This document shows positions 7,341-26,087 of a stretch of 64,000 bases of DNA, in pieces. The stretch is from an uncultured Alphaproteobacteria bacterium (GTDB taxonomy: Bacteria; Pseudomonadota; Alphaproteobacteria; Rs-D84). Position 1 is the first letter of the stretch. Each line of letters begins with the position of its first letter. The position numbers and the translations under genes are program-made. The DNA lies in NCBI GenBank assembly GCA_949878575.1, contig CATLAX010000001.1, positions 320,220-384,219 on the forward strand, in the 5' to 3' direction. The notes under the pieces were generated by a model. That model searched no databases, was not told the DNA's origin, and saw only the letters and a program-made list of their open reading frames with translations.

Positions 7341-7745
7341 ATGGAAATATATAAGGCTGCTTTTGTATATAACAAACCGGGTGCCAAATATTTGGAGGTA
7401 TGGCAGCCGAATTTTACACCGGCGCCGGTTTATATTCCGGTAATGTATCGTAATTTGTTACAAAGCGGAATGTACATACGGGTATACAAAAATCGTGACA
7501 ATGCCACGATGGCGTATGGATTCGGCAATAATTTGCTGTTCGTAAACCCGCCGACAACGCGTTATGAAATGCAGTTGGTGTTGAACAATATGCGCGATAT
7601 TTATTCCGGAAAACTGGACAGTCTGTTGTTTAAATACGATTTGCGCCGCTGTTTAAGCAAAAACGGACTGTGTCCGACACATGATGCCATAACAAATATG
7701 ATATTGTATGCGTTGGCGATGGATATATATCGCGGCGAACGGTAA
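7341..7745 (+). CDS. Hypothetical protein
   Basis: 134-aa ORF with no recognisable motif. Confidence 0.35.
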   Translation: MEIYKAAFVYNKPGAKYLEVWQPNFTPAPVYIPVMYRNLLQSGMYIRVYKNRDNATMAYGFGNNLLFVNPPTTRYEMQLVLNNMRDIYSGKLDSLLFKYDLRRCLSKNGLCPTHDAITNMILYALAMDIYRGER

Positions 7746-8055
7746 CCGTTTGCGTGTTTTTGTTTGATGTAAATTCGTTTGTTTTTTCGTCGATGTCATT
7801 GTTACGTTTGCGTCCGCGCGGGGTGCGGGCGGACAGGATGGCCCGGCGAATTTCTTTTTGGTTGGCCAGAGCCGGGGTACACCAGCCGACGTCGGGCCAT
7901 AAATTTCATATGATTTTGTTATAGGGCCGGGTGGCAGATAGCCCCACCTTTTTCTGATTGGAGATGAGAAGCAGGTAAAGAACCCATCATAAAAGCCACC
8001 CGGTAAAAATTAACCGCCAAAAGAAAGCCAGACGCATAATAAGGCTTTTAAAAGC

Positions 8056-8127
8056 GGTTGGAGGTTAAGAAACTATCATTCTAAGAAAATAGCCCGGTTT
8101 ATTCAATACATTCACCGGCCTCCAACC
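8056..8127 (+). repeat. Hairpin repeat element, copy 1 (GGTTGGAGG ... TTATTCAATACATTCAC ... CCTCCAACC)
   Basis: 9-bp terminal inverted arms ggttggagg/cctccaacc enclose a conserved internal motif. Confidence 0.8.
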
Positions 8128-8281
8128 AGCAAGGTCAGAGTGTTTTAACGTGCCCCGGCACGCTTAGAATGGAGGTTTCTTAAGCCTCACACTAATATCA
8201 TTAGTGCATATGAATAATATCATATATTTTTAATTGTATCAAGAAAAAAATAATGCAAAAACCATCCTCTAATTTTTAGAC

Positions 8282-8346
8282 GGTTGGGGGTAAGAACTAC
8301 CATTCAGAATAGCGCAGTTATTCAATATATTCACTGCCCCCCAACC
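8282..8346 (+). repeat. Hairpin repeat element, copy 2 (arms GGTTGGGGG/CCCCCAACC, compensatory change)
   Basis: Same internal motif ttattcaatatattcac. Both arms changed A->G / T->C so that pairing is preserved. Confidence 0.8.
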
Positions 8347-8459
8347 ATATGTTAGAGTATTTTTTATTTGAATGAATAGGTTCTTATGCCTATACCGGCA
8401 ACACACCGATACATAGACAATTATATATAATATTTTGCTGATTTCAATATATAAAAAGT

Positions 8460-8529
8460 TGGTCGGATGTTCTAAACTATATCAATGTGATAGAGTGGCT
8501 TATTCCGTATATTCGCCACCATCCGACCA
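8460..8529 (+). repeat. Hairpin repeat element, copy 3 (arms TGGTCGGATG/CATCCGACCA, compensatory changes)
   Basis: Internal motif ttattccgtatattcgcca. The arms differ from the consensus but remain complementary. Confidence 0.7.
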
Positions 8530-8626
8530 TGTGGGAATTATATCATATTTATATTGATGTTTATATGCTAAAAAGTTGCATGGGCGCCAAAAAGCTGATA
8601 TTATTTTTATTTGAAAAGGATTAGCC

Positions 8627-9841
8627 ATGCAAAACGAATTGTTGCGCGAATTGTCCGCGCGCGGATTTATTAATCAGGTTTCTAATATTGATGCATTAAA
8701 CGATGCCTTGAATTCCGGGAAAATTGCCGCATATTTGGGGTCCGACCCGACGGCCGATTCGTTGCATGTGGGGCATTTGGTGCCGGTGATGATGATGCGC
8801 TGGCTGCAAAAATACGGGCATCGGCCGATTATGCTGGTCGGCGGCGCAACAGGCCGCATCGGTGATCCGTCCGGCCGTGATAGCGGGCGCCCCATGATGA
8901 CAGAGGAAACGCTGGCCCGCAATATTGCCGGATTGAAAAAGTCTTATTCAAAATTCTTTCATTTCGGCGACGGGGACTCTGACGCAATCATGGTGGATAA
9001 TTACGACTGGATGGGGGGGTATTCGCATCTGGATTTCCTGCGCGATTTTGGAACGGATTTTACCGTGCCGCGCATGCTGTCCATGGAAAGCGTGAAGCGT
9101 CGTCTGGACAATGGAATGACATTTTTGGAATTTAATTACATGACGTTCCAGGCGGTGGATTTTTTAACCCTGTACAAGGATTACGGGTGCATATTGCAGA
9201 CATGCGGCGCCGACCAGTGGGGCAACGCCATTATGGGAATTGAATTAATACGCAAAAAACTGGGGAAAGAGGCGTTCGTTCTGTCCACGTCGTTAATTAC
9301 CGATTCCAACGGCAATAAAATCGGCAAATCCGCCGGAAACGCAATATGGGTGAACGAAGACAAGACGTCGCCATATGAATACTATCAGTATTTCCGCAAT
9401 ACGCCGGATGATTTGGTGGAAAAGTTTTTAAAGATATTTACGGAAATTCCGCTGGATGAAATTGCGCGCCTGGCCGCGCTGCGCGGGGCGGAATTGAACG
9501 AGGCGAAAAAGATTTTGGCGTTTGCCGCAACAGAAATCGCGCATGGAACCGCCGCGGCAACGGATGCCGCCGCCGCCGCCGCCGCGTTGTTTGGGGGCGG
9601 GGCGGATATGTCAAACGCCCCGTCTGTGACGATGCCGATGGCGGCGCCGATGGGGATTGTGGATTTTTTATGCGCGGCCGGCATGTTCACGTCAAAGTCA
9701 GAGGCGCGGCGCATGATAGAACAGGGCGGAATTCAAATTGACGGTGTCAAAATAACCGACCCGCGTGCAATGATTGCGCCGGCGTGCGACATCATGGTGC
9801 AAAAGGGCAAGAAAACTTTCCTGCGGGTGATGTGTAAATAA
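8627..9841 (+). CDS. tyrS: Tyrosyl-tRNA synthetase
   Basis: HVGHLVP (HIGH motif) and KIGKS (KMSKS motif), with a C-terminal S4-like domain. Confidence 0.9.
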   Translation: MQNELLRELSARGFINQVSNIDALNDALNSGKIAAYLGSDPTADSLHVGHLVPVMMMRWLQKYGHRPIMLVGGATGRIGDPSGRDSGRPMMTEETLARNIAGLKKSYSKFFHFGDGDSDAIMVDNYDWMGGYSHLDFLRDFGTDFTVPRMLSMESVKRRLDNGMTFLEFNYMTFQAVDFLTLYKDYGCILQTCGADQWGNAIMGIELIRKKLGKEAFVLSTSLITDSNGNKIGKSAGNAIWVNEDKTSPYEYYQYFRNTPDDLVEKFLKIFTEIPLDEIARLAALRGAELNEAKKILAFAATEIAHGTAAATDAAAAAAALFGGGADMSNAPSVTMPMAAPMGIVDFLCAAGMFTSKSEARRMIEQGGIQIDGVKITDPRAMIAPACDIMVQKGKKTFLRVMCK

Positions 9842-17946: not shown

Positions 17947-17978
17947 TGAAAATCCCGCCAAACGGCGGGATTTTCTTT
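17947..17978 (+). terminator. Intrinsic terminator after PFOR
   Basis: aaatcccgccaaacggcgggattttctttg. Confidence 0.65.
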
Positions 17979-18069
17979 GCAATGTGCTCTTTTTATGCTA
18001 TAATTCATAATGCATCGGGTGACGCCCGGTGCGGGGTGTAGTAACCTCGTGTAGTTTTTTCTCCAACCC

Positions 18070-18135
18070 GGTTGGAGGGCTGTGATATATTTGAATAAGC
18101 AGCACTATTGCTACAGTAGTTACTAACCTCCAACC
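18070..18135 (-). repeat. Hairpin repeat element, copy 4 (inverted orientation)
   Basis: The reverse complement reads ggttggagg ttagtaactactgtagcaatagtgctgc ttattcaaatatatcacag ccctccaacc. It lies just upstream of XRE gene 18189. Confidence 0.8.
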
Positions 18136-18188
18136 GCCCATTCGTCACGGGCGGTGTTTTTAATTAAAAAAACAATGGAGTGTAAACT

Positions 18189-18500
18189 ATGAAAACACAA
18201 TTGAACAAGCGTCCGGCCGACCCGGCACGTCGTATAAAGGTACATCCTGTTATTGCGAAAAGATTTTCACACAGTCTGCCGCCGAATGTTTTGCTGTTTC
18301 GGGCGCGTCAAATGATGGGCGTATCGCGGCAGCTGTTGGCCGAAGAAATGGGAATTTCACGGGCTTTGTTACGTAAATATGAATGCAGTGAGGTAAAAAT
18401 ACCGGCAAGTTTTCTGTTAAAGATTTTTATGTTTGGTCTGGATTTTTGGACTGACGGAATTTACTGGAATATTGATGGTTCGGAACAAACACAGAAATAA
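18189..18500 (+). CDS. XRE-family HTH transcriptional regulator (small)
   Basis: HTH segment RARQMMGVSRQLLAEEMGISRALLRKYE. Confidence 0.6.
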   Translation: MKTQLNKRPADPARRIKVHPVIAKRFSHSLPPNVLLFRARQMMGVSRQLLAEEMGISRALLRKYECSEVKIPASFLLKIFMFGLDFWTDGIYWNIDGSEQTQK

Positions 18501-18502
18501 CA

Positions 18503-18528
18503 AAACGGCCCCGTGGGGCCGTTTTATT
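18503..18528. terminator. Bidirectional terminator shared by convergent genes
   Basis: aaacggccccgtggggccgttttattt. Confidence 0.7.
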
Positions 18529-21500
18529 TAGAACCGGTATGAACCAGACAGCTTTATCTTATGCATTTGGATGTCTGCATTGTACTGATAACGGTAATCC
18601 AGACCAACCTGAACACCGGTTACAGACAAGAATTCCATGCCGCCACCGATATTCGCCCACAGCGGGTCTATATCAACATCGTATTTTGTAAAGTGCTTTG
18701 CCGCCGCAAACTTGTACTTTGCATTGTCCGGCGCGCCCAGTACGTCATATTCCACGCCGATGGCCGCATACGGACGCAACTGGAACCATGCGGACGGATA
18801 TATGCGCTTTTGCGCGGTTAACGTATACCCCGGCGTTACAATCATGTACCCGTCTGATTTCAATTTCATGTAATCGTCGCCGGCGGCCTTTTCCTTAACG
18901 GAAAATCCAAAATTGTATCCGACGCGGGCGTAAACATTGCCGACAATGTATTGATTCAACCAGTCGTGCATTAACCCCCATTCCGATATTAGGCTAAACG
19001 CTGTTCCGTCGCCGTCAATTTTGGACATATATGTCTGGTCGCGCGTAACATCCAGCCAGTGCAGGTCCAGGAATGCGTTCCCGTACAGGCGCATTTTTGT
19101 CCCCAGATTCTGCATCATATATGCACCCAGACCAAAATTTGTGTCAGATACGGTCGTATTAACACTGCCCGCAATGTACTGGCCCGGCAGATAGCCCAGA
19201 TCCATCGCGTCGTCATTGTCGCCCGACATGTGGGAAACACGGCCCGCCAGTCCCAGAATCAATGTTTCCGTTTCCTGCCAGTCGTATCCGCCGGTAAAGC
19301 CGAATCGGTCTGATGCGACGCGTTTGCCGTCGTCAACCTTTTGGCGTGCCGTGCCGAAATCAAATTCGCCCCAGGCCTTGCGCAAATGACGGTTGCGGTT
19401 CCATATGAATTCATCCAGCATGCGGTCTTCAAAATCACGGAAAGACGTATGTTCGTTCAGAACGACGCTGCCGGCCATCTGTTCTATTTCACGCGGCTGG
19501 AACAGGCGGCTAAAGCGGGCCAGACCGCGACCATCACGCGTGGTGTTGTAGTATTCCATGCGGTTTAACAGTTCTTTGGACATTTCTTCCATGTTTGTGC
19601 CGGCGAATGCAACCGGTATCGCCTCTATCGGTGTGCGGTTATAGAATTTCGCATCGGCCAGACCGCCCGCAATCAAATCATCCAATGCACCGGCGGTTGT
19701 GTATTCACCCTTTGTATGGTCGTTTTCACGTTCAACGATGGGTTGAATCTTGAACACCTGTACCGGGCCGCCAAAGCGCGGATCAAATACCAGATACAGA
19801 CTGTCCGCGGTGCCGTCGCTGTTATAATCACGAACAGATATGTATGCCGGCAAATCGGTTCCCGTTTCATTCAGGCCCTGTGTCGGCTTGAAATAATCAA
19901 AGCATTTGCTGCCGTCCGCGTTGCAGAATTTTACGGCAACATTGCGGATTTTCGTACCTTCTTCGCGGATGCCGCCGTCTGCATGCAGCAGCCATATTGC
20001 GGTACCCTGATCAATCATGTCAAATATTTGTACGCCCATCTGGCCATCGTTTAACAGACCCGTATCATTGTTGATGTTGTCGCCCAGGTTTGTAATGAAC
20101 GTGCCGTTTACGGAAATCAAAGGCTCCGGATTCGGGTGTTTTGACGGGTCGTGTATAATCTGGCCCAGGGTTTTGTCATCGGCCAGGCTGACGTTCGCCC
20201 AATAGTCATATATTGTTGAATTCATGCCGCCACCCGCCGCATAGGGTAAAATCGCCATGTTCAGACCACTGTTGGAATCGTATGTATAGTTCCCCGTTAT
20301 TTTCATGTGTTCCAGACCGGTAAATTTCACGCCGCCTGATACGTTGCCCGTAACACCAACGTTTAGCCAGTTTGTTGCCGGCGTTGCCGCAACGGTCAAA
20401 TCTGTGGCGTCAATATTGCCGCCGACTGTGAAGTCACTGGTTCGCAGTGTTAGGCGCCCGGATTCCTGGGCCACGCCGGCAAAGGTTGCACTTGACGTTG
20501 TTATTGTATAATTGTTGGACATTACATTTATATCGCGTGCGTATACGGCGCCCGTATAATTTTGGCGCAACATGTTTTGCGAAAGTGCGCCGTTTGTTGT
20601 TAAACCCGCCCCCGCCAGTGTTGTTGTGCCGTTAAACATAGCATCCGCCACGTTTGTAATACCCGTGCCCGAATCCAGCGTTATGTCGCCGCCGGACATG
20701 ATGTTGTTCGCATCAATTCCGGTGCCGCCCGCCAGACGCAGCGTGCCGCTGTTTACGACGTTTGTCGTGGTTAGCTTGCCGCCGGCGGCAATGTCGGCAT
20801 CGGCCCCGGATGCCACGGTTACGTTTCCAGCGATTCGTGCGGCCCCCGTAAATACATAGTCAACCGATTCGCCCTGTGCTTTAAAATCACCCGTAACATT
20901 TAACGATTCGCCCGTAAAACGCCCGCTTTTTGTTATGTTCAGGCCGGCGGATTGCGCACCCTGGGTCATGTCGCCGTAAACGGATACCGGGCCGCCGATG
21001 TTTGTGTTCGCAACATCTATTGTTGCGGTTGCGCCGGATAAAACCGTCAATAGGCCAGTCGCGGTCAGTCTGTCGCCGATTATGGTCGTGGTGCCGGCAT
21101 TGGCGTTGATGGCGCCGGCATCAATGTTTGTTGCAACCAGTTTGGCCGTGCCGCTGTTGTTCAAATCCATCATGTCTATATAAGATGCATCAATGTTCAG
21201 CGCACCGGTATTCGCAACGGTTGCATCACCGCCCAGCGTGGCGATTTCCGCCGCGGTGATGTTTAATTCCCCGTTTGCAGTAATCCCGCCGTCAACAATG
21301 GCGTGTTTTGCAGACAATATGTTTAATGTCTTGCCGGATGACATTTCTATACCGCCGACAAAGATGCTTTTTCCGTCCGGTTGTGTCGTTAATGTGAACG
21401 TATCCGTATCTTTTACAATCAGGCCTGTCGCCGGGTCTGTTGACGGATTGTTAAACCATATTGTGTCATCAATGTGTATGGAATCCGTGGCGGCAATCTG

Positions 21501-23672
21501 TTGGCCGTGCATGATATATTGACCATTGCCGGACAAAGAGCCAACTTTTACCTCATTCCCATAGAACTCAATGGAGCCGGCATTGTTTGCCAGATCTTTG
21601 GCCGTTGTAACATCGCCCTTGATTGTTGTGGCGCTGTTTTCATTGTTTCCGAATATCAGGTGGCCCAGTCCCGCGGCATCAGCGTTGCCGTCCACCGTTA
21701 TAACATTATTGCCGGCTATGAATTGTGCCGTGCGGGAAACGTCGCTTTGCACGGCGGCGATATTGCCCCCGATTGTCATGCCGCCATCTGACGTTAATAC
21801 AAAATTTTGGGTGCCGTTGCCGCCGATGTTCACAGCGCCCGGCGCATCCGCGGGCAGGGCCTGTGTCGCGGATAGTGTTACGTCGCCGGCGATTTTTGTT
21901 TCGCCTGTTACGTGCAGATCCGTTGTTGCGTCGCCGATGTTTATGACGCCGGCCGTGGTATACAAATTGCCGTTTACCGTCATCGGGCCGATTAATGAGT
22001 TCAGATTCGTTGTGCCGCCATCGGCGCGTATCGCCCCCAGTGTTACGGCGCCCCCGTTTTTATCAGAGCCCAATATTGACAGCGTGCCGCCTTTGGTTGT
22101 GATTGTGTCTTTTATGTCAATGGTGCGGGCATTAATATTCATTTCACCGCTTTCGTTTGTGACAGTGCCATAAACAATTACCGCACCGGTCGGCGATGTG
22201 GCGGCGGAAATGTTCATATTGCCGGCATTTGTTATGGACGTTGCCGCGGTAAGCGTGCCGAATTTTACGCTGTCCTCGTTAAGTATGTTTATGGTTGCGC
22301 CGGAATTGCTGACAACCGCACCGTTTATCTGCATGTCGCTGGCGCCAGATATGGTGGTAATGCCAGAATTCCCGGTGATGCCGTTCGCTATTGTTATGGC
22401 GTCGCCGGCGGATGTATCTGTTGCCGTAATGTTTAAGTTTTTGCCGGAATTTGTAACGGAATTTGCAGAAATATTTTGCGCCGTTACGGTCATGTTTGCG
22501 TTCGTGTTGGAAACGGCATCAGACTGACCATTGATTATGTTTGTGTTCAGTGCCAAATCACCGTTTTTTACGATTACTGTAAAATTGTTCAATTTATTTG
22601 AAAACAGCTGCAGCCAGTTTTCATCCCCGCCGACATTCAGCGTCCCGGCGGACAGATAAAATTCGTTTGTAGTCTGCATCGCGCTGTTGTCAAAACCGTT
22701 CGCCAGGCTTAAGGCACCGGTAATATTCAATGTCAAATCACCGCTGTTTACAAAAGATGCGTTGTTGTGCGTGGCGTCTGTTCCGGTAACGGTCAGGCTG
22801 TTTGCACGGACAATCATAGTGCCGCCTTCGTTTGTCATGGCGCCGCCCGCGGTTACAGCGCTGCCTGTGGTAATATCCAACAGTTCGCCGCCCTTGTTTT
22901 CAATGACGCCGGCGGAATTTACGGCCCCGGATGTCTTTATGTACATTTTCCCGGCGTTGTTTTGCACGTTGCCGGATGTGACGGACGCGGCGTTAATGCT
23001 TGTTTCCGTGGCGGCCCCGGATGTCGTTATTGCCGCCGTGCCGGTATTCAGGCCGCCCGTCATTATAATATTGCCGTCCGAATCGAGATGGCCGATGGTC
23101 ATTTTTCCGCTGGTATTTTCAATGGCGCCGGTTGTCATGGAAACCGCGTTTATATCCAGTTCCATGGCCCCGGTATTGTTGCGAATCGCACCGGTGGATG
23201 TAAACGTGCCGATATTGGTCAAATCAAGCCGCGCCAGGTTATCAATGGATCCCACGGTCATGTTTGTTGGGGAAACGCCGTCGCTTTGGCCTATTTTCAG
23301 ATAGTTCCCAGCCTCTACCTGCAACATGTTTGCTATTTTTATCGGGCCGTCGGATGCGATGGTAAATCCGTTTGCCGTGCCGGCCGCCGTTTCATTTAAT
23401 ATAAATATCCATCCCGTATCGGCGCCCGTATTGTGTCCGACAATCATTCCGCCCGCTATATCAATGCCGTTTGTGCCGACATTCATGTTTTTGGCGACGG
23501 TTCCGTTGTTTGGATCGTTTCTGACAACAACACTGGATGTGTCCGTGTCAATGTTTAATGTCGTATCCGTTACGGCAATGGTGCCGTTTGCATCCGGATC
23601 CAAATAAGTGGGGACCGCCATAGCACCGAACGGCGCCATGCAGAAAATAAAAGAAAATAGCTTTTTTATCAT
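18528..23672 (-). CDS. Giant autotransporter (type Va) adhesin-like protein, about 1715 aa
   Basis: Signal peptide MIKKLFSFIFCMAPFGAMA. About 1300 aa of T/G/N/A-rich imperfect repeats (beta-helix-like passenger). A C-terminal ~280-aa beta-barrel region ends ...LSGSYRF (terminal aromatic). Confidence 0.75.
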   Translation of the reverse strand: MIKKLFSFIFCMAPFGAMAVPTYLDPDANGTIAVTDTTLNIDTDTSSVVVRNDPNNGTVAKNMNVGTNGIDIAGGMIVGHNTGADTGWIFILNETAAGTANGFTIASDGPIKIANMLQVEAGNYLKIGQSDGVSPTNMTVGSIDNLARLDLTNIGTFTSTGAIRNNTGAMELDINAVSMTTGAIENTSGKMTIGHLDSDGNIIMTGGLNTGTAAITTSGAATETSINAASVTSGNVQNNAGKMYIKTSGAVNSAGVIENKGGELLDITTGSAVTAGGAMTNEGGTMIVRANSLTVTGTDATHNNASFVNSGDLTLNITGALSLANGFDNSAMQTTNEFYLSAGTLNVGGDENWLQLFSNKLNNFTVIVKNGDLALNTNIINGQSDAVSNTNANMTVTAQNISANSVTNSGKNLNITATDTSAGDAITIANGITGNSGITTISGASDMQINGAVVSNSGATINILNEDSVKFGTLTAATSITNAGNMNISAATSPTGAVIVYGTVTNESGEMNINARTIDIKDTITTKGGTLSILGSDKNGGAVTLGAIRADGGTTNLNSLIGPMTVNGNLYTTAGVINIGDATTDLHVTGETKIAGDVTLSATQALPADAPGAVNIGGNGTQNFVLTSDGGMTIGGNIAAVQSDVSRTAQFIAGNNVITVDGNADAAGLGHLIFGNNENSATTIKGDVTTAKDLANNAGSIEFYGNEVKVGSLSGNGQYIMHGQQIAATDSIHIDDTIWFNNPSTDPATGLIVKDTDTFTLTTQPDGKSIFVGGIEMSSGKTLNILSAKHAIVDGGITANGELNITAAEIATLGGDATVANTGALNIDASYIDMMDLNNSGTAKLVATNIDAGAINANAGTTTIIGDRLTATGLLTVLSGATATIDVANTNIGGPVSVYGDMTQGAQSAGLNITKSGRFTGESLNVTGDFKAQGESVDYVFTGAARIAGNVTVASGADADIAAGGKLTTTNVVNSGTLRLAGGTGIDANNIMSGGDITLDSGTGITNVADAMFNGTTTLAGAGLTTNGALSQNMLRQNYTGAVYARDINVMSNNYTITTSSATFAGVAQESGRLTLRTSDFTVGGNIDATDLTVAATPATNWLNVGVTGNVSGGVKFTGLEHMKITGNYTYDSNSGLNMAILPYAAGGGMNSTIYDYWANVSLADDKTLGQIIHDPSKHPNPEPLISVNGTFITNLGDNINNDTGLLNDGQMGVQIFDMIDQGTAIWLLHADGGIREEGTKIRNVAVKFCNADGSKCFDYFKPTQGLNETGTDLPAYISVRDYNSDGTADSLYLVFDPRFGGPVQVFKIQPIVERENDHTKGEYTTAGALDDLIAGGLADAKFYNRTPIEAIPVAFAGTNMEEMSKELLNRMEYYNTTRDGRGLARFSRLFQPREIEQMAGSVVLNEHTSFRDFEDRMLDEFIWNRNRHLRKAWGEFDFGTARQKVDDGKRVASDRFGFTGGYDWQETETLILGLAGRVSHMSGDNDDAMDLGYLPGQYIAGSVNTTVSDTNFGLGAYMMQNLGTKMRLYGNAFLDLHWLDVTRDQTYMSKIDGDGTAFSLISEWGLMHDWLNQYIVGNVYARVGYNFGFSVKEKAAGDDYMKLKSDGYMIVTPGYTLTAQKRIYPSAWFQLRPYAAIGVEYDVLGAPDNAKYKFAAAKHFTKYDVDIDPLWANIGGGMEFLSVTGVQVGLDYRYQYNADIQMHKIKLSGSYRF

Positions 23673-23759
23673 ATTTTTTTGTTTATTTTTGGTTTTGATT
23701 GTGCTCTTATTGTTCAACAAATTGGTAGTATAAGGCAAGTTAAAAAATCTTGTTTGTAA

Positions 23760-25756: not shown

Positions 25757-25833
25757 GGTTGGAGGTTCATACTACACAAGGTATAGCGCGCTTATTAGCC
25801 GACCATAGGCCGGGGTATTCACGCCCTCCAACC
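25757..25833 (+). repeat. Hairpin repeat element, copy 5 (long-loop subtype)
   Basis: ggttggagg ... gcttatt[insert]tattcacg ccctccaacc. It is followed by the second conserved hairpin at 25900..25928. Confidence 0.75.
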
Positions 25834-25928: not shown

Positions 25929-26017
25929 GATGGTTAGTTCCATTACTTTAATGATTATACTAAATTTATGAAAAACATTCAAATAAAAAAGCCTCAAATA
26001 ATATTGAGGGCTGGAGG

Positions 26018-26087
26018 TTCATATTACACAAGGTGTATAGTGCTTATTATAATGGCATGCCATTAATATTCAGACACCCTCCAACCC
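26018..26087 (+). repeat. Hairpin repeat element, copy 6 (long-loop subtype)
   Basis: gggctggagg ... gcttatt[atggcatgccat]taatattcagacac cctccaaccc. Confidence 0.7.

Follow-up and report, generated by a model that had tools for sequence, protein, structure and literature searches.

What are the three hairpins that stand in the gap upstream of tyrS, the tyrosyl-tRNA synthetase gene, in an uncultured alphaproteobacterium of the order Rs-D84? They lie in a stretch of 64,000 nucleotides (nt) of contig CATLAX010000001.1 (assembly GCA_949878575.1), called the window below, and all positions are those of this stretch. An earlier note, made from the letters alone, had described them as a novel family of hairpin repeats with covarying arms, either related to repetitive extragenic palindromes and bacterial interspersed mosaic elements (REP/BIME) or representing small RNAs. 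Here, we report that the hairpins belong to a family of structured RNAs, hitherto undescribed, which is found in gut Alphaproteobacteria with reduced genomes. In its usual setting, in front of genes, this family is probably a two-state transcription attenuator; the copies close to tyrS are minus-strand members devoid of an open reading frame (ORF).

Three hairpins and the family to which they belong

The gap upstream of tyrS spans 881 nt, between an ORF of 134 amino acids (aa) (7341-7745, plus strand) and tyrS itself (8627-9841, plus strand). Its GC content is 39%, compared with 49.5% for the whole window, and it contains no ORF of 60 aa or more, in agreement with the AT-rich, ORF-free gap of about 880 nt first described. 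Three elements of 65-72 nt are found there, with the following arms as read on the plus strand.

8056-8127: copy 1, arms GGTTGGAGG (8056-8064) and CCTCCAACC (8119-8127)
8282-8346: copy 2, arms GGTTGGGGG (8282-8290) and CCCCCAACC (8338-8346)
8461-8528: copy 3, arms TGGTCGGATG (8460-8469) and CATCCGACCA (8520-8529)

The arms differ among the three copies yet remain complementary. An internal motif, TTATTCAATAYATTCAC, is seen at 8099 and again at 8318, and a version of it with three mismatches at 8500; a stricter pattern combining motif and arm gives three matches for 0.00 expected (100 shuffles). The inner stem of 4-5 bp around the motif covaries too (CCGGT/ACCGG, GCAG/CTGC, and GTGGC/GCCAC). 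Coordinates, arms and motif of the earlier note were all reproduced.

Beyond this locus, an exact-pattern scan was made of a collection with one genome per species. The pattern fixed the columns GGTYGG, loop and CUAU and imposed nothing on the 3' arm, on the AUAG or on the inner-stem partners. At least 119 loci were found. Among the matches listed, all but two chance matches in Lysinibacillus come from Candidatus Enterousia or from uncultured alphaproteobacterial metagenome-assembled genomes of animal or human gut, and several contigs per genome often carry copies. A search of the fetched DNA with nhmmer gave 144 copies; in all, about 120 loci contain more than 140 copies. A covariance model, for which 107 distinct copies were used, also recovers copies in the fetched loci that the pattern had missed. 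In the window, it detects six copies, namely the three proposed at first, close to tyrS, and three more elsewhere (18070-18135, plus strand; 25757-25833 and 26009-26086, minus strand). The pattern search and the covariance model advocated in the earlier note have thus uncovered a large family.

The claim of novelty was borne out by the Rfam search suggested at the same time. At gathering thresholds, Rfam 15 (4227 families) identifies only tRNAs in the whole window and in eight canonical loci, and permissive scans of 7700-8700 and 17950-18200 yield no relevant family. A description of this RNA family is absent from the literature searched on Enterousia, Rs-D84 and the motif strings. Bacteria of the Enterousia type (order Rs-D84) live in the gut and have not been cultured; their genomes measure about 0.75-1.0 Mb, and few regulators can be recognised in them (PMC12306168). 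The shared RNA family and the label "Alphaproteobacteria bacterium" carried by homologues of its TyrS suggest that the organism of the window is one of this lineage.

A three-way junction conserved as RNA

The element is a three-way junction made up of the stems P1, P2, and P3. P1 has 9 bp, GGUUGGAGG/CCUCCAACC. P2 has 4-5 bp and is capped by a near-invariant loop, GAAUAUANNGAAUAA. P3 is a short CUAU/AUAG stem with a variable loop, followed by a variable joining strand of 7-8 nt, J3/1, which leads back to P1. The consensus in RNA sense reads GGUUGGAGG-GCGGY-GAAUAUAUUGAAUAA-RCCCGC-UAU...AUAG-UUUCGAA-CCUCCAACC.

Selection on structure, as proposed from the three copies, is confirmed at the scale of the family. 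In an alignment of 107 sequences, 97.3% of the cells are paired and 8 of the 17 pairs change on both sides, values that none of 500 shuffles reaches; when the partners are slid, pairing drops to 28-52%. P1 is nearly invariant throughout the family, and its rare changes are compensatory or produce G.U pairs (GGUUGGAGU/ACUCCAACC, GGUUGGAUG/CAUCCAACC, GGUUGGGGA/UCCCCAACC, as well as copies 2 and 3 of the window). The arm covariation first noticed is thus genuine but was drawn from outliers, the three copies being among the most divergent members. The P2 loop tolerates a hairpin inserted between its GAAUA and AAUAA halves, as in the copies at 25757 and 26009 and at locus L068 of the scan.

Several other identities were considered for the element and its loop. 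A kissing-loop dimer through AAUAUAUU was rejected since the two central loop positions vary and the palindrome is not conserved. An operator for a helix-turn-helix (HTH) protein was rejected since GAAUA is repeated directly in the conserved bases and not in inverted orientation. ARAGORN finds no tRNA or tRNA-like structure here, and mimicry of the tRNA-Tyr anticodon does not hold because GUA is not conserved among copies.

The functional strand

The earlier note had read the elements on the plus strand, and this orientation has to be reversed. At well-defined pairs, 44 G.U wobbles are counted for a single A.C. With the covariance model, the three copies near tyrS reach 64-68 bits when read on the minus strand and 17-18 bits when read on the plus strand. 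In the RNA orientation, 117 of 130 copies have a terminator-like hairpin and a U-run on their 3' side, compared with 22 of 130 in the opposite one. The flank profiles agree, the A-run and small hairpin seen 5' of the element on the strand read at first being a hairpin followed by a U-run, 3' of the element, on the other. A ribosome binding site (RBS) with an ORF of at least 50 aa is found within 110 nt of 74 of 101 copies, compared with 11 of 101 in the opposite orientation. Because wobble asymmetry, model scores, terminators with their flanks and downstream ORFs all agree, we assign the function to the minus strand at the tyrS locus. The best sigma-70-like matches in the gap are also all on the minus strand, one before each copy. 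Copies 1 and 2 have a long inverted repeat whose G.U pairs had at first seemed to point to a switch on the plus strand; the family-wide counts reversed this view.

Leaders with two competing folds

In the family as a whole, the element belongs to a leader, typically of about 150-200 nt, located 5' of a gene in the same orientation. An RBS and an ORF follow within 110 nt in 89 of 118 pattern-selected copies; the three copies close to tyrS have no such ORF. A terminator is present 3' of 125 of 130 copies, and in 95 of these 125 its 5' arm starts at AACC or ACC, that is, with the last 3-4 nt of P1. Since the terminator borrows the closing nucleotides of P1, P1 and the full terminator stem are mutually exclusive. 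In the tyrS array, this overlap is seen in units 1 and 2, not in unit 3.

Upstream of the element, most copies carry a 5' domain composed of H1, which is a variable hairpin, a GGGG-loop-CCY hairpin, in some copies a further hairpin, H3, and a segment called alpha, CUCCAACC, which lies 3-6 nt 5' of the element and has the capacity to pair with the P1 5' arm. Within each copy, the P3 loop, J3/1 and CCUCC find a complementary partner in the 5' domain, with median duplex energies of -22.6 kcal/mol for cognate and -12.9 kcal/mol for non-cognate pairs (p = 9e-49). RNAalifold, applied to 17 full leaders, gives a fold with this long-range helix, an alpha:beta hairpin, P2 and the terminator; three of the long-range pairs show 3-4 pair types each. 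Both competing folds, P1/P2/P3 on the one side and long-range helix, alpha:beta hairpin and terminator on the other, carry covariation support.

From the sequences we infer transcription, switching and an effector. In a first state, the three-way junction would hold P1 and thereby the AACC needed for the 5' arm of the terminator. In a second state, the upstream CUCCAACC would pair with the 5' arm of P1, the 5' segment would pair with the P3 loop, J3/1 and CCUCC of its own copy, and the terminator would form. Such a logic is that of an antiterminator, an anti-antiterminator and a terminator. A putative effector, either a protein or a ligand, would set the balance between the two folds, with the invariant P2 loop as its most likely contact site.

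Some 5' hairpins start with AUG and open ORFs of 10-16 codons; others do not, and a leader peptide was dismissed as a feature of the family. Two leaders (L012 2014-2121 and L032 5400-5508) precede the gene of a 594-aa ABC transporter and have no terminator. After the element, both carry GCCUGUGUGG, complementary to their own 5' hairpin H1, which suggests a different expression platform, possibly translational.

Three ORF-less units beside tyrS

Read on the minus strand, each copy in the gap belongs to a small unit of its own, numbered like the copies. The parts of the three units are as follows, from the tyrS side outwards.

8537-8571, minus strand: promoter-like site of unit 3, TTAGCA-18-TATGAT (8571-8542), 9/12 consensus match
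8461-8528, minus strand: element of unit 3, 68.0 bits (17.0 on the plus strand); P1 8528-8520/8469-8461; P2 8519-8515/8499-8495 with loop GAAUAUACGGAAUAA (8514-8500); P3 CUAU 8493-8490/AUAG 8480-8477
8453-8460, minus strand: tail of unit 3, AACUUUUU, directly after P1, its sole terminator-like feature
8420-8447, minus strand: promoter-like site of unit 2, TTGAAA-16-TATAAT, 11/12
8347-8414, minus strand: 5' domain of unit 2, with H1 8413-8391 and alpha CUCUAAC 8357-8351, which can pair with the P1 5' arm
8282-8346, minus strand: element of unit 2, 66.3 bits (17.9 on the plus strand); P1 8346-8338/8290-8282; P2 8337-8334/8317-8314 with loop 8332-8318; P3 8312-8309/8300-8297, including a U.G pair; J3/1 8296-8291
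8245-8285, minus strand: terminator of unit 2, 7 bp, AACCGUC 8285-8279/GAUGGUU 8266-8260, with a U-rich tail to 8245
8214-8242, minus strand: promoter-like site of unit 1, TTGATA-17-TATTAT with an upstream TG, 10/12
8128-8207, minus strand: 5' domain of unit 1, with H1 8207-8189, H3 8162-8149 and alpha CUCUGACC 8140-8133
8056-8127, minus strand: element of unit 1, 64.0 bits (17.8 on the plus strand); P1 8127-8119/8064-8056; P2 8118-8114/8098-8094 with loop GAAUGUAUUGAAUAA (8113-8099); P3 8092-8089/8076-8073; J3/1 8072-8065
8004-8059, minus strand: terminator-like hairpin of unit 1, AACCGC(U) 8059-8053/(G)GCGGUU 8018-8012, then AAUUUUUA (8011-8004)

The predicted minimum free energy (MFE) folds differ between units. 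For unit 3, the MFE fold is the three-way junction (z -4.4), and the full unit 2 keeps the junction as well. For the full unit 1, it is the alternative fold, in which the terminator forms together with the long-range helix and the alpha:beta hairpin (z -6.3). In unit 2, the P3 loop and J3/1 are complementary to the segment 8390-8369 of the same unit (-16.6 kcal/mol, compared with -8.1 kcal/mol with the orthologous partner of L122, a locus from a strain with 94% TyrS identity), and the 3'-terminal 4 nt of P1 are also the first of the terminator 5' arm. In unit 1, the P3 loop, J3/1 and CCUCC have their complementary partner in the segment 8188-8163 (-25.9 kcal/mol, compared with -14.1 kcal/mol for cross pairing). 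In front of unit 3, a TGnTATAAT at 8545-8537 overlaps the promoter-like site and would start an RNA 1-2 nt before P1. A 9-bp direct repeat, CAACTTTTT, is present at 8578-8570 and 8461-8453, and the tail of unit 3 lies in its second copy. No ORF stands behind any of the three units, unit 1 running toward the 3' end of the convergent 134-aa gene. The units would yield short minus-strand RNAs of roughly 75, 160 and 200 nt.

Two observations concern the borders of this array. A plausible tyrS promoter, TTGCAT-17-TATTAT (8575-8603, plus strand), stands back to back with the promoter-like site of unit 3; if both are real, transcription of tyrS and of unit 3 diverges from a shared region of about 70 nt. 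Downstream of unit 1, a 77-nt hairpin (7927-8003, CCGGGTGGC...GCCACCCGG) contains the leader-like stretches GGGUUCUUUACC, CUCCAAUC, GGUGGGG and CUAU, and the 17-mer CTTCTCATCTCCAATCA (7955-7971, minus strand) in it is identical in L122 despite differing surroundings. This hairpin may be a degenerate fourth unit; the covariance model detects no copy in 7927-8003.

Short ORF-less units in tandem, with imperfect palindromes of 65-72 nt and variable arms, also bring to mind sites of recombination at the DNA level such as integron attC sites, the more so as unit 1 has a weak match to the model of the integron-associated sRNA-Xcc1 (RF02221). This match, the only one in the region with E <0.1 for any Rfam model, reaches 26.3 bits (E = 0.044) for a gathering threshold of 53, and it is gone for the canonical copy at 18070 even at E <=10. 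The core triplets are reversed on both strands (GGTTGG...CCAACC): GTT belongs to the 5' arm and AAC to the 3' arm, the opposite of attC, which has R'' (RYYYAAC) 5' and R' (GTTRRRY) 3'. No integrase is present among the genes called at the tyrS loci, the architecture of terminator, RBS and ORF is unlike that of an integron cassette, and the units carry promoter-like sites of their own. We therefore consider the attC explanation extremely unlikely.

Selfish repeats, the comparison made in the earlier note, have somewhat more in their favour. If the elements were REP/BIME sequences or miniature inverted-repeat transposable elements (MITEs), their arms would be terminal inverted repeats recognised by a transposase; they are indeed multi-copy and dispersed, have 9-bp inverted termini of nearly constant sequence and differ in copy number among strains, and one unit is bounded by a 9-bp direct repeat. 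However, direct repeats flanking the arms are seen in 0 of 130 copies (k >=4; lengths 4-9 nt), and a 6-mer repeat in 1 of 130 when offsets are allowed. The repeat around unit 3 encloses promoter and element, not the arms. The orientation to the next gene is fixed and the terminator overlaps the 3' arm; covariation reaches the internal stems and a long-range helix outside the element; and the G.U asymmetry reveals a constraint on one strand, at the RNA level. In place of a simple, imperfect palindrome of 20-40 nt that often stands at the 3' ends of genes and in either orientation, as in REP/BIME, we find a three-way junction of 65-72 nt with the orientation bias of ORFs given above. Plasmid and phage collections contain no similar DNA, and three matches in viral contigs resemble ordinary chromosomal leaders. 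A selfish origin thus appears very improbable, and of the two identities first put forward, it is that of small RNAs that came near the truth.

The tyrS locus in relatives

Are these units tied to tyrS? The tyrS loci of relatives were fetched through TyrS homologues, since tblastn had detected none in the 119 loci of the scan. Strains whose TyrS identity is 94% have the array on the same side of tyrS and in the same orientation, with two units in L122 and L129-131 and three in L132, L133, and L134, the last one having a different gene on the far side. In contrast, for relatives whose TyrS identity is 88, 87 or 84%, the fetched tyrS loci of 7.2 kb are devoid of copies, and the gaps upstream of tyrS measure only about 80-370 nt. 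Because these relatives have short gaps and lack copies, the elements are not a conserved tyrS leader. The far-side ORF, of 134 aa here and of 153-154 aa in the 94% strains (L122 1828-2289, plus strand), has no Pfam match; since it was not found in the 84-88% relatives either, the whole tsf-tyrS segment appears lineage-specific.

These comparisons also bear on a plus-strand cis-acting leader of tyrS, with for instance T-box-like or tRNA-mimicking autoregulation. Aminoacyl-tRNA synthetase genes are often leader-regulated in other phyla, and the elements stand 100-570 nt upstream of the tyrS start codon in an ORF-free gap. However, the T-box model (RF00230) has no match on either strand of 7700-8700 at E <=10, no other Rfam family matches, the plus-strand model scores are low, as given above, and, throughout the family, the element precedes unrelated genes on the other strand. 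Together with the relatives devoid of copies, this makes a tyrS leader hardly credible. The position upstream of tyrS that was first reported is therefore correct, but the link to tyrS is not: the units point away from this gene and are not at the same position in its 84-88% relatives.

Maintenance or decay of the units

Within the strains that share the array, the units have changed in a concerted manner. When the window is compared with L122, changes are seen both in the variable 5' segment and in its partner in P3 and J3/1, and the two still match. The within-genome duplexes reach -16.6, -22.4, -25.9 and -23.2 kcal/mol, and the cross-genome ones -8.1 to -14.1 kcal/mol. As the former are stronger, the changes are compensatory. 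P1 shows a compensatory change too, with GGGGG/CCCCC here and GGGGA/UCCCC in L122. Every unit in four strains carries its own matched pair of segments.

ORF-less arrays are not confined to tyrS. At L068 (2805-3119, minus strand), four elements abut with linkers of 8-9 nt, behind one TATAAT-like site and before one terminator, and no ORF is present. In the P2 loop of the first two elements, an inserted hairpin separates GAAUAA from AAAUAAG. ORF-less arrays are also found in L091, L098, and L074. A leader module repeated in an ORF-less, terminated transcript, as a decoy would be, is thus predicted at L068, in the tyrS array and for the unit at 26009. ORF-less units could act as decoys that titrate the effector of the family, or as RNAs acting in trans.

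Several points weigh against an attenuator reading of the family and against functional units beside tyrS. The columns fixed in the search make their own invariance in the alignment (A2) partly a matter of construction. Promoters and terminators are consensus matches only; the effector is postulated, and we infer which fold would be the "on" state. The three units score 64-68 bits, below the 75-90 of typical copies. Neither a 5' domain nor a proper terminator hairpin is present in unit 3, and the terminator of unit 1, with its enlarged, internally paired loop, is less canonical than the family norm. The number of units varies between strains (2 or 3). In the orthologue of unit 1 in L122 (2541-2593, minus strand; also L129-131, 2041-2093), a GGAC-GUAA-GUCC tetraloop hairpin replaces the 15-nt P2 loop, with P1, P3, the long-range complementarity and the terminator retained. 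Low scores, imperfect terminators, variation in copy number and loss of the loop fit a relaxed constraint on at least some units.

The same features can be taken further, to units that are decaying relics: cassettes made of a leader and a gene would have been duplicated beside tyrS, the ORFs lost, and the leaders left to erode. Covariance-model scores under the family norm, the truncated unit 3, the two or three units per strain, the P2 loop deleted in one unit of L122 and the degenerate leader-like stretch at 7927-8003 after unit 1 all point in this direction. So does the comparison of unit 3 and its promoter with L122: they form a 117-bp indel bounded by the 9-bp repeat CAACTTTTT, of which L122 has one copy. 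The event itself could be an insertion or a microhomology deletion. However, decay does not account for orthologous substitutions that preserve the helix between 5' domain and P3, nor for the compensatory changes in P1. Moreover, the promoter-like sites of units 1 and 2 still score 10-11 of 12, and ORF-less arrays recur in unrelated genomes, including the predicted single transcription unit with four modules at L068. Decay is, in our view, unlikely, and the units close to tyrS are most likely maintained small RNAs.

Other copies in the window and the genes behind the family

The three remaining copies of the window illustrate the usual setting and its variants.

17977-18004, plus strand: promoter-like site of the canonical copy, TTGCAA-16-TATAAT
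18012-18069, plus strand: 5' domain of the canonical copy
18070-18135, plus strand: canonical family member, 57.2 bits with the covariance model
18133-18164, plus strand: terminator of the canonical copy
18189-18500, plus strand: gene after the canonical copy, a 103-aa HTH_3 ORF
25757-25833, minus strand: family member with a hairpin inserted in the P2 loop, 40.5 bits; terminator 25760-25736
25700-25350, minus strand: gene after this copy, a 116-aa XRE-type HTH ORF
26009-26086, minus strand: ORF-less family member, 26.4 bits, with its own terminator at about 26012-25985

The unit at 26009 stands in tandem directly upstream of that at 25757, and the variable segments of their 5' domains and P3 nearly match. 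The hairpin inserted in the P2 loop measures 21-24 nt in these two copies. A 1736-aa ORF (18528-23738, minus strand) lies immediately downstream of the HTH gene at 18189-18500 and is convergent with it.

Among 83 distinct downstream ORFs, Pfam identifies HTH_31 in 15, HTH_3 in 10 and HTH_19 in 10, overlapping assignments that all denote XRE-type HTH proteins. A few others match ephrin-receptor-like, TNFR-like or Flg_new (Listeria-Bacteroides repeat) families, and two are ABC transporters. Most other downstream ORFs have no Pfam match, and many of these translations, judged by eye, have signal-peptide-like N-termini and are cysteine-rich. With six copies in a window of 64 kb, and copies elsewhere standing mostly before genes for small HTH regulators and secreted cysteine-rich proteins, the family seems to be a major layer of control over the genes with which this lineage faces its host or partners.

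A possible function and the relationship to known systems

Taken together, these features lead us to a tentative proposal, which goes further than the attenuator reading and which we hold as no better than possible. The family would be a lineage-specific attenuator RNA controlling a large regulon of XRE-type regulators and secreted or surface proteins. It would sense a putative effector through the GAAUAUANNGAAUAA loop, each copy having a rapidly co-evolving "address" of its own, and the ORF-less copies would be decoys acting in trans. If this is true, a new class of regulatory RNA has been found together with its own sponge RNAs. In any case, as its copies number more than 140 and its two competing folds both show clear covariation, the family is a well-populated new candidate for the discovery of riboswitches or RNA-binding proteins. 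Its unusual feature is that each copy has its own matched pair of variable segments, which stay complementary even across close strains. The family, the copy-specific long-range helix and the ORF-less arrays are new; attenuation by competing helices is known as a kind of mechanism.

How does the family compare with systems already described? Like REP/BIME sequences and MITEs, its members are short, multi-copy and intergenic, with inverted termini. Unlike them, they have a fixed orientation in the 5' untranslated region, termini that overlap terminators, no target duplications, a strand-specific covariation of RNA and a three-way junction. With sRNA-Xcc1, whose match is on the minus strand, they have in common a closing helix of 9 bp, two adjacent hairpins, a short 3' joining strand and a U-rich tail. 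No sequence motif is shared, however, and we treat the likeness as a chance resemblance in shape.

The closest parallels in organisation are riboswitches of the terminator/antiterminator type and protein-dependent attenuators (RAT/LicT-SacY and ANTAR/EutV). There too, a 5' leader contains a conserved domain whose closing helix is common to the 5' arm of the terminator; exclusive helices include an upstream segment similar to an anti-antiterminator, and many genes of a genome carry the same domain and form a regulon. The differences are that the present family matches none of the 4227 Rfam families, has an additional, copy-specific long-range helix and precedes genes for secreted proteins and XRE-type regulators instead of metabolic genes. 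Copies devoid of an ORF are also frequent, and the modules of L068 abut within a single unit from promoter to terminator.

Finally, the ORF-less copies recall known decoy RNAs. EutX sequesters the ANTAR protein EutV, and CsrB sequesters CsrA. As with EutX/Rli55 and CsrB/RsmZ, the leader module that would bind the effector is also present in predicted ORF-less terminated transcripts, sometimes in tandem (four modules at L068, three at the tyrS locus). Sequestration by the present family is conjectural. In contrast to these decoys, the module of the family is a three-way junction of 66 nt and not a pair of hexaloop hairpins or a series of GGA loops, and two of the three units close to tyrS keep the full switching apparatus.

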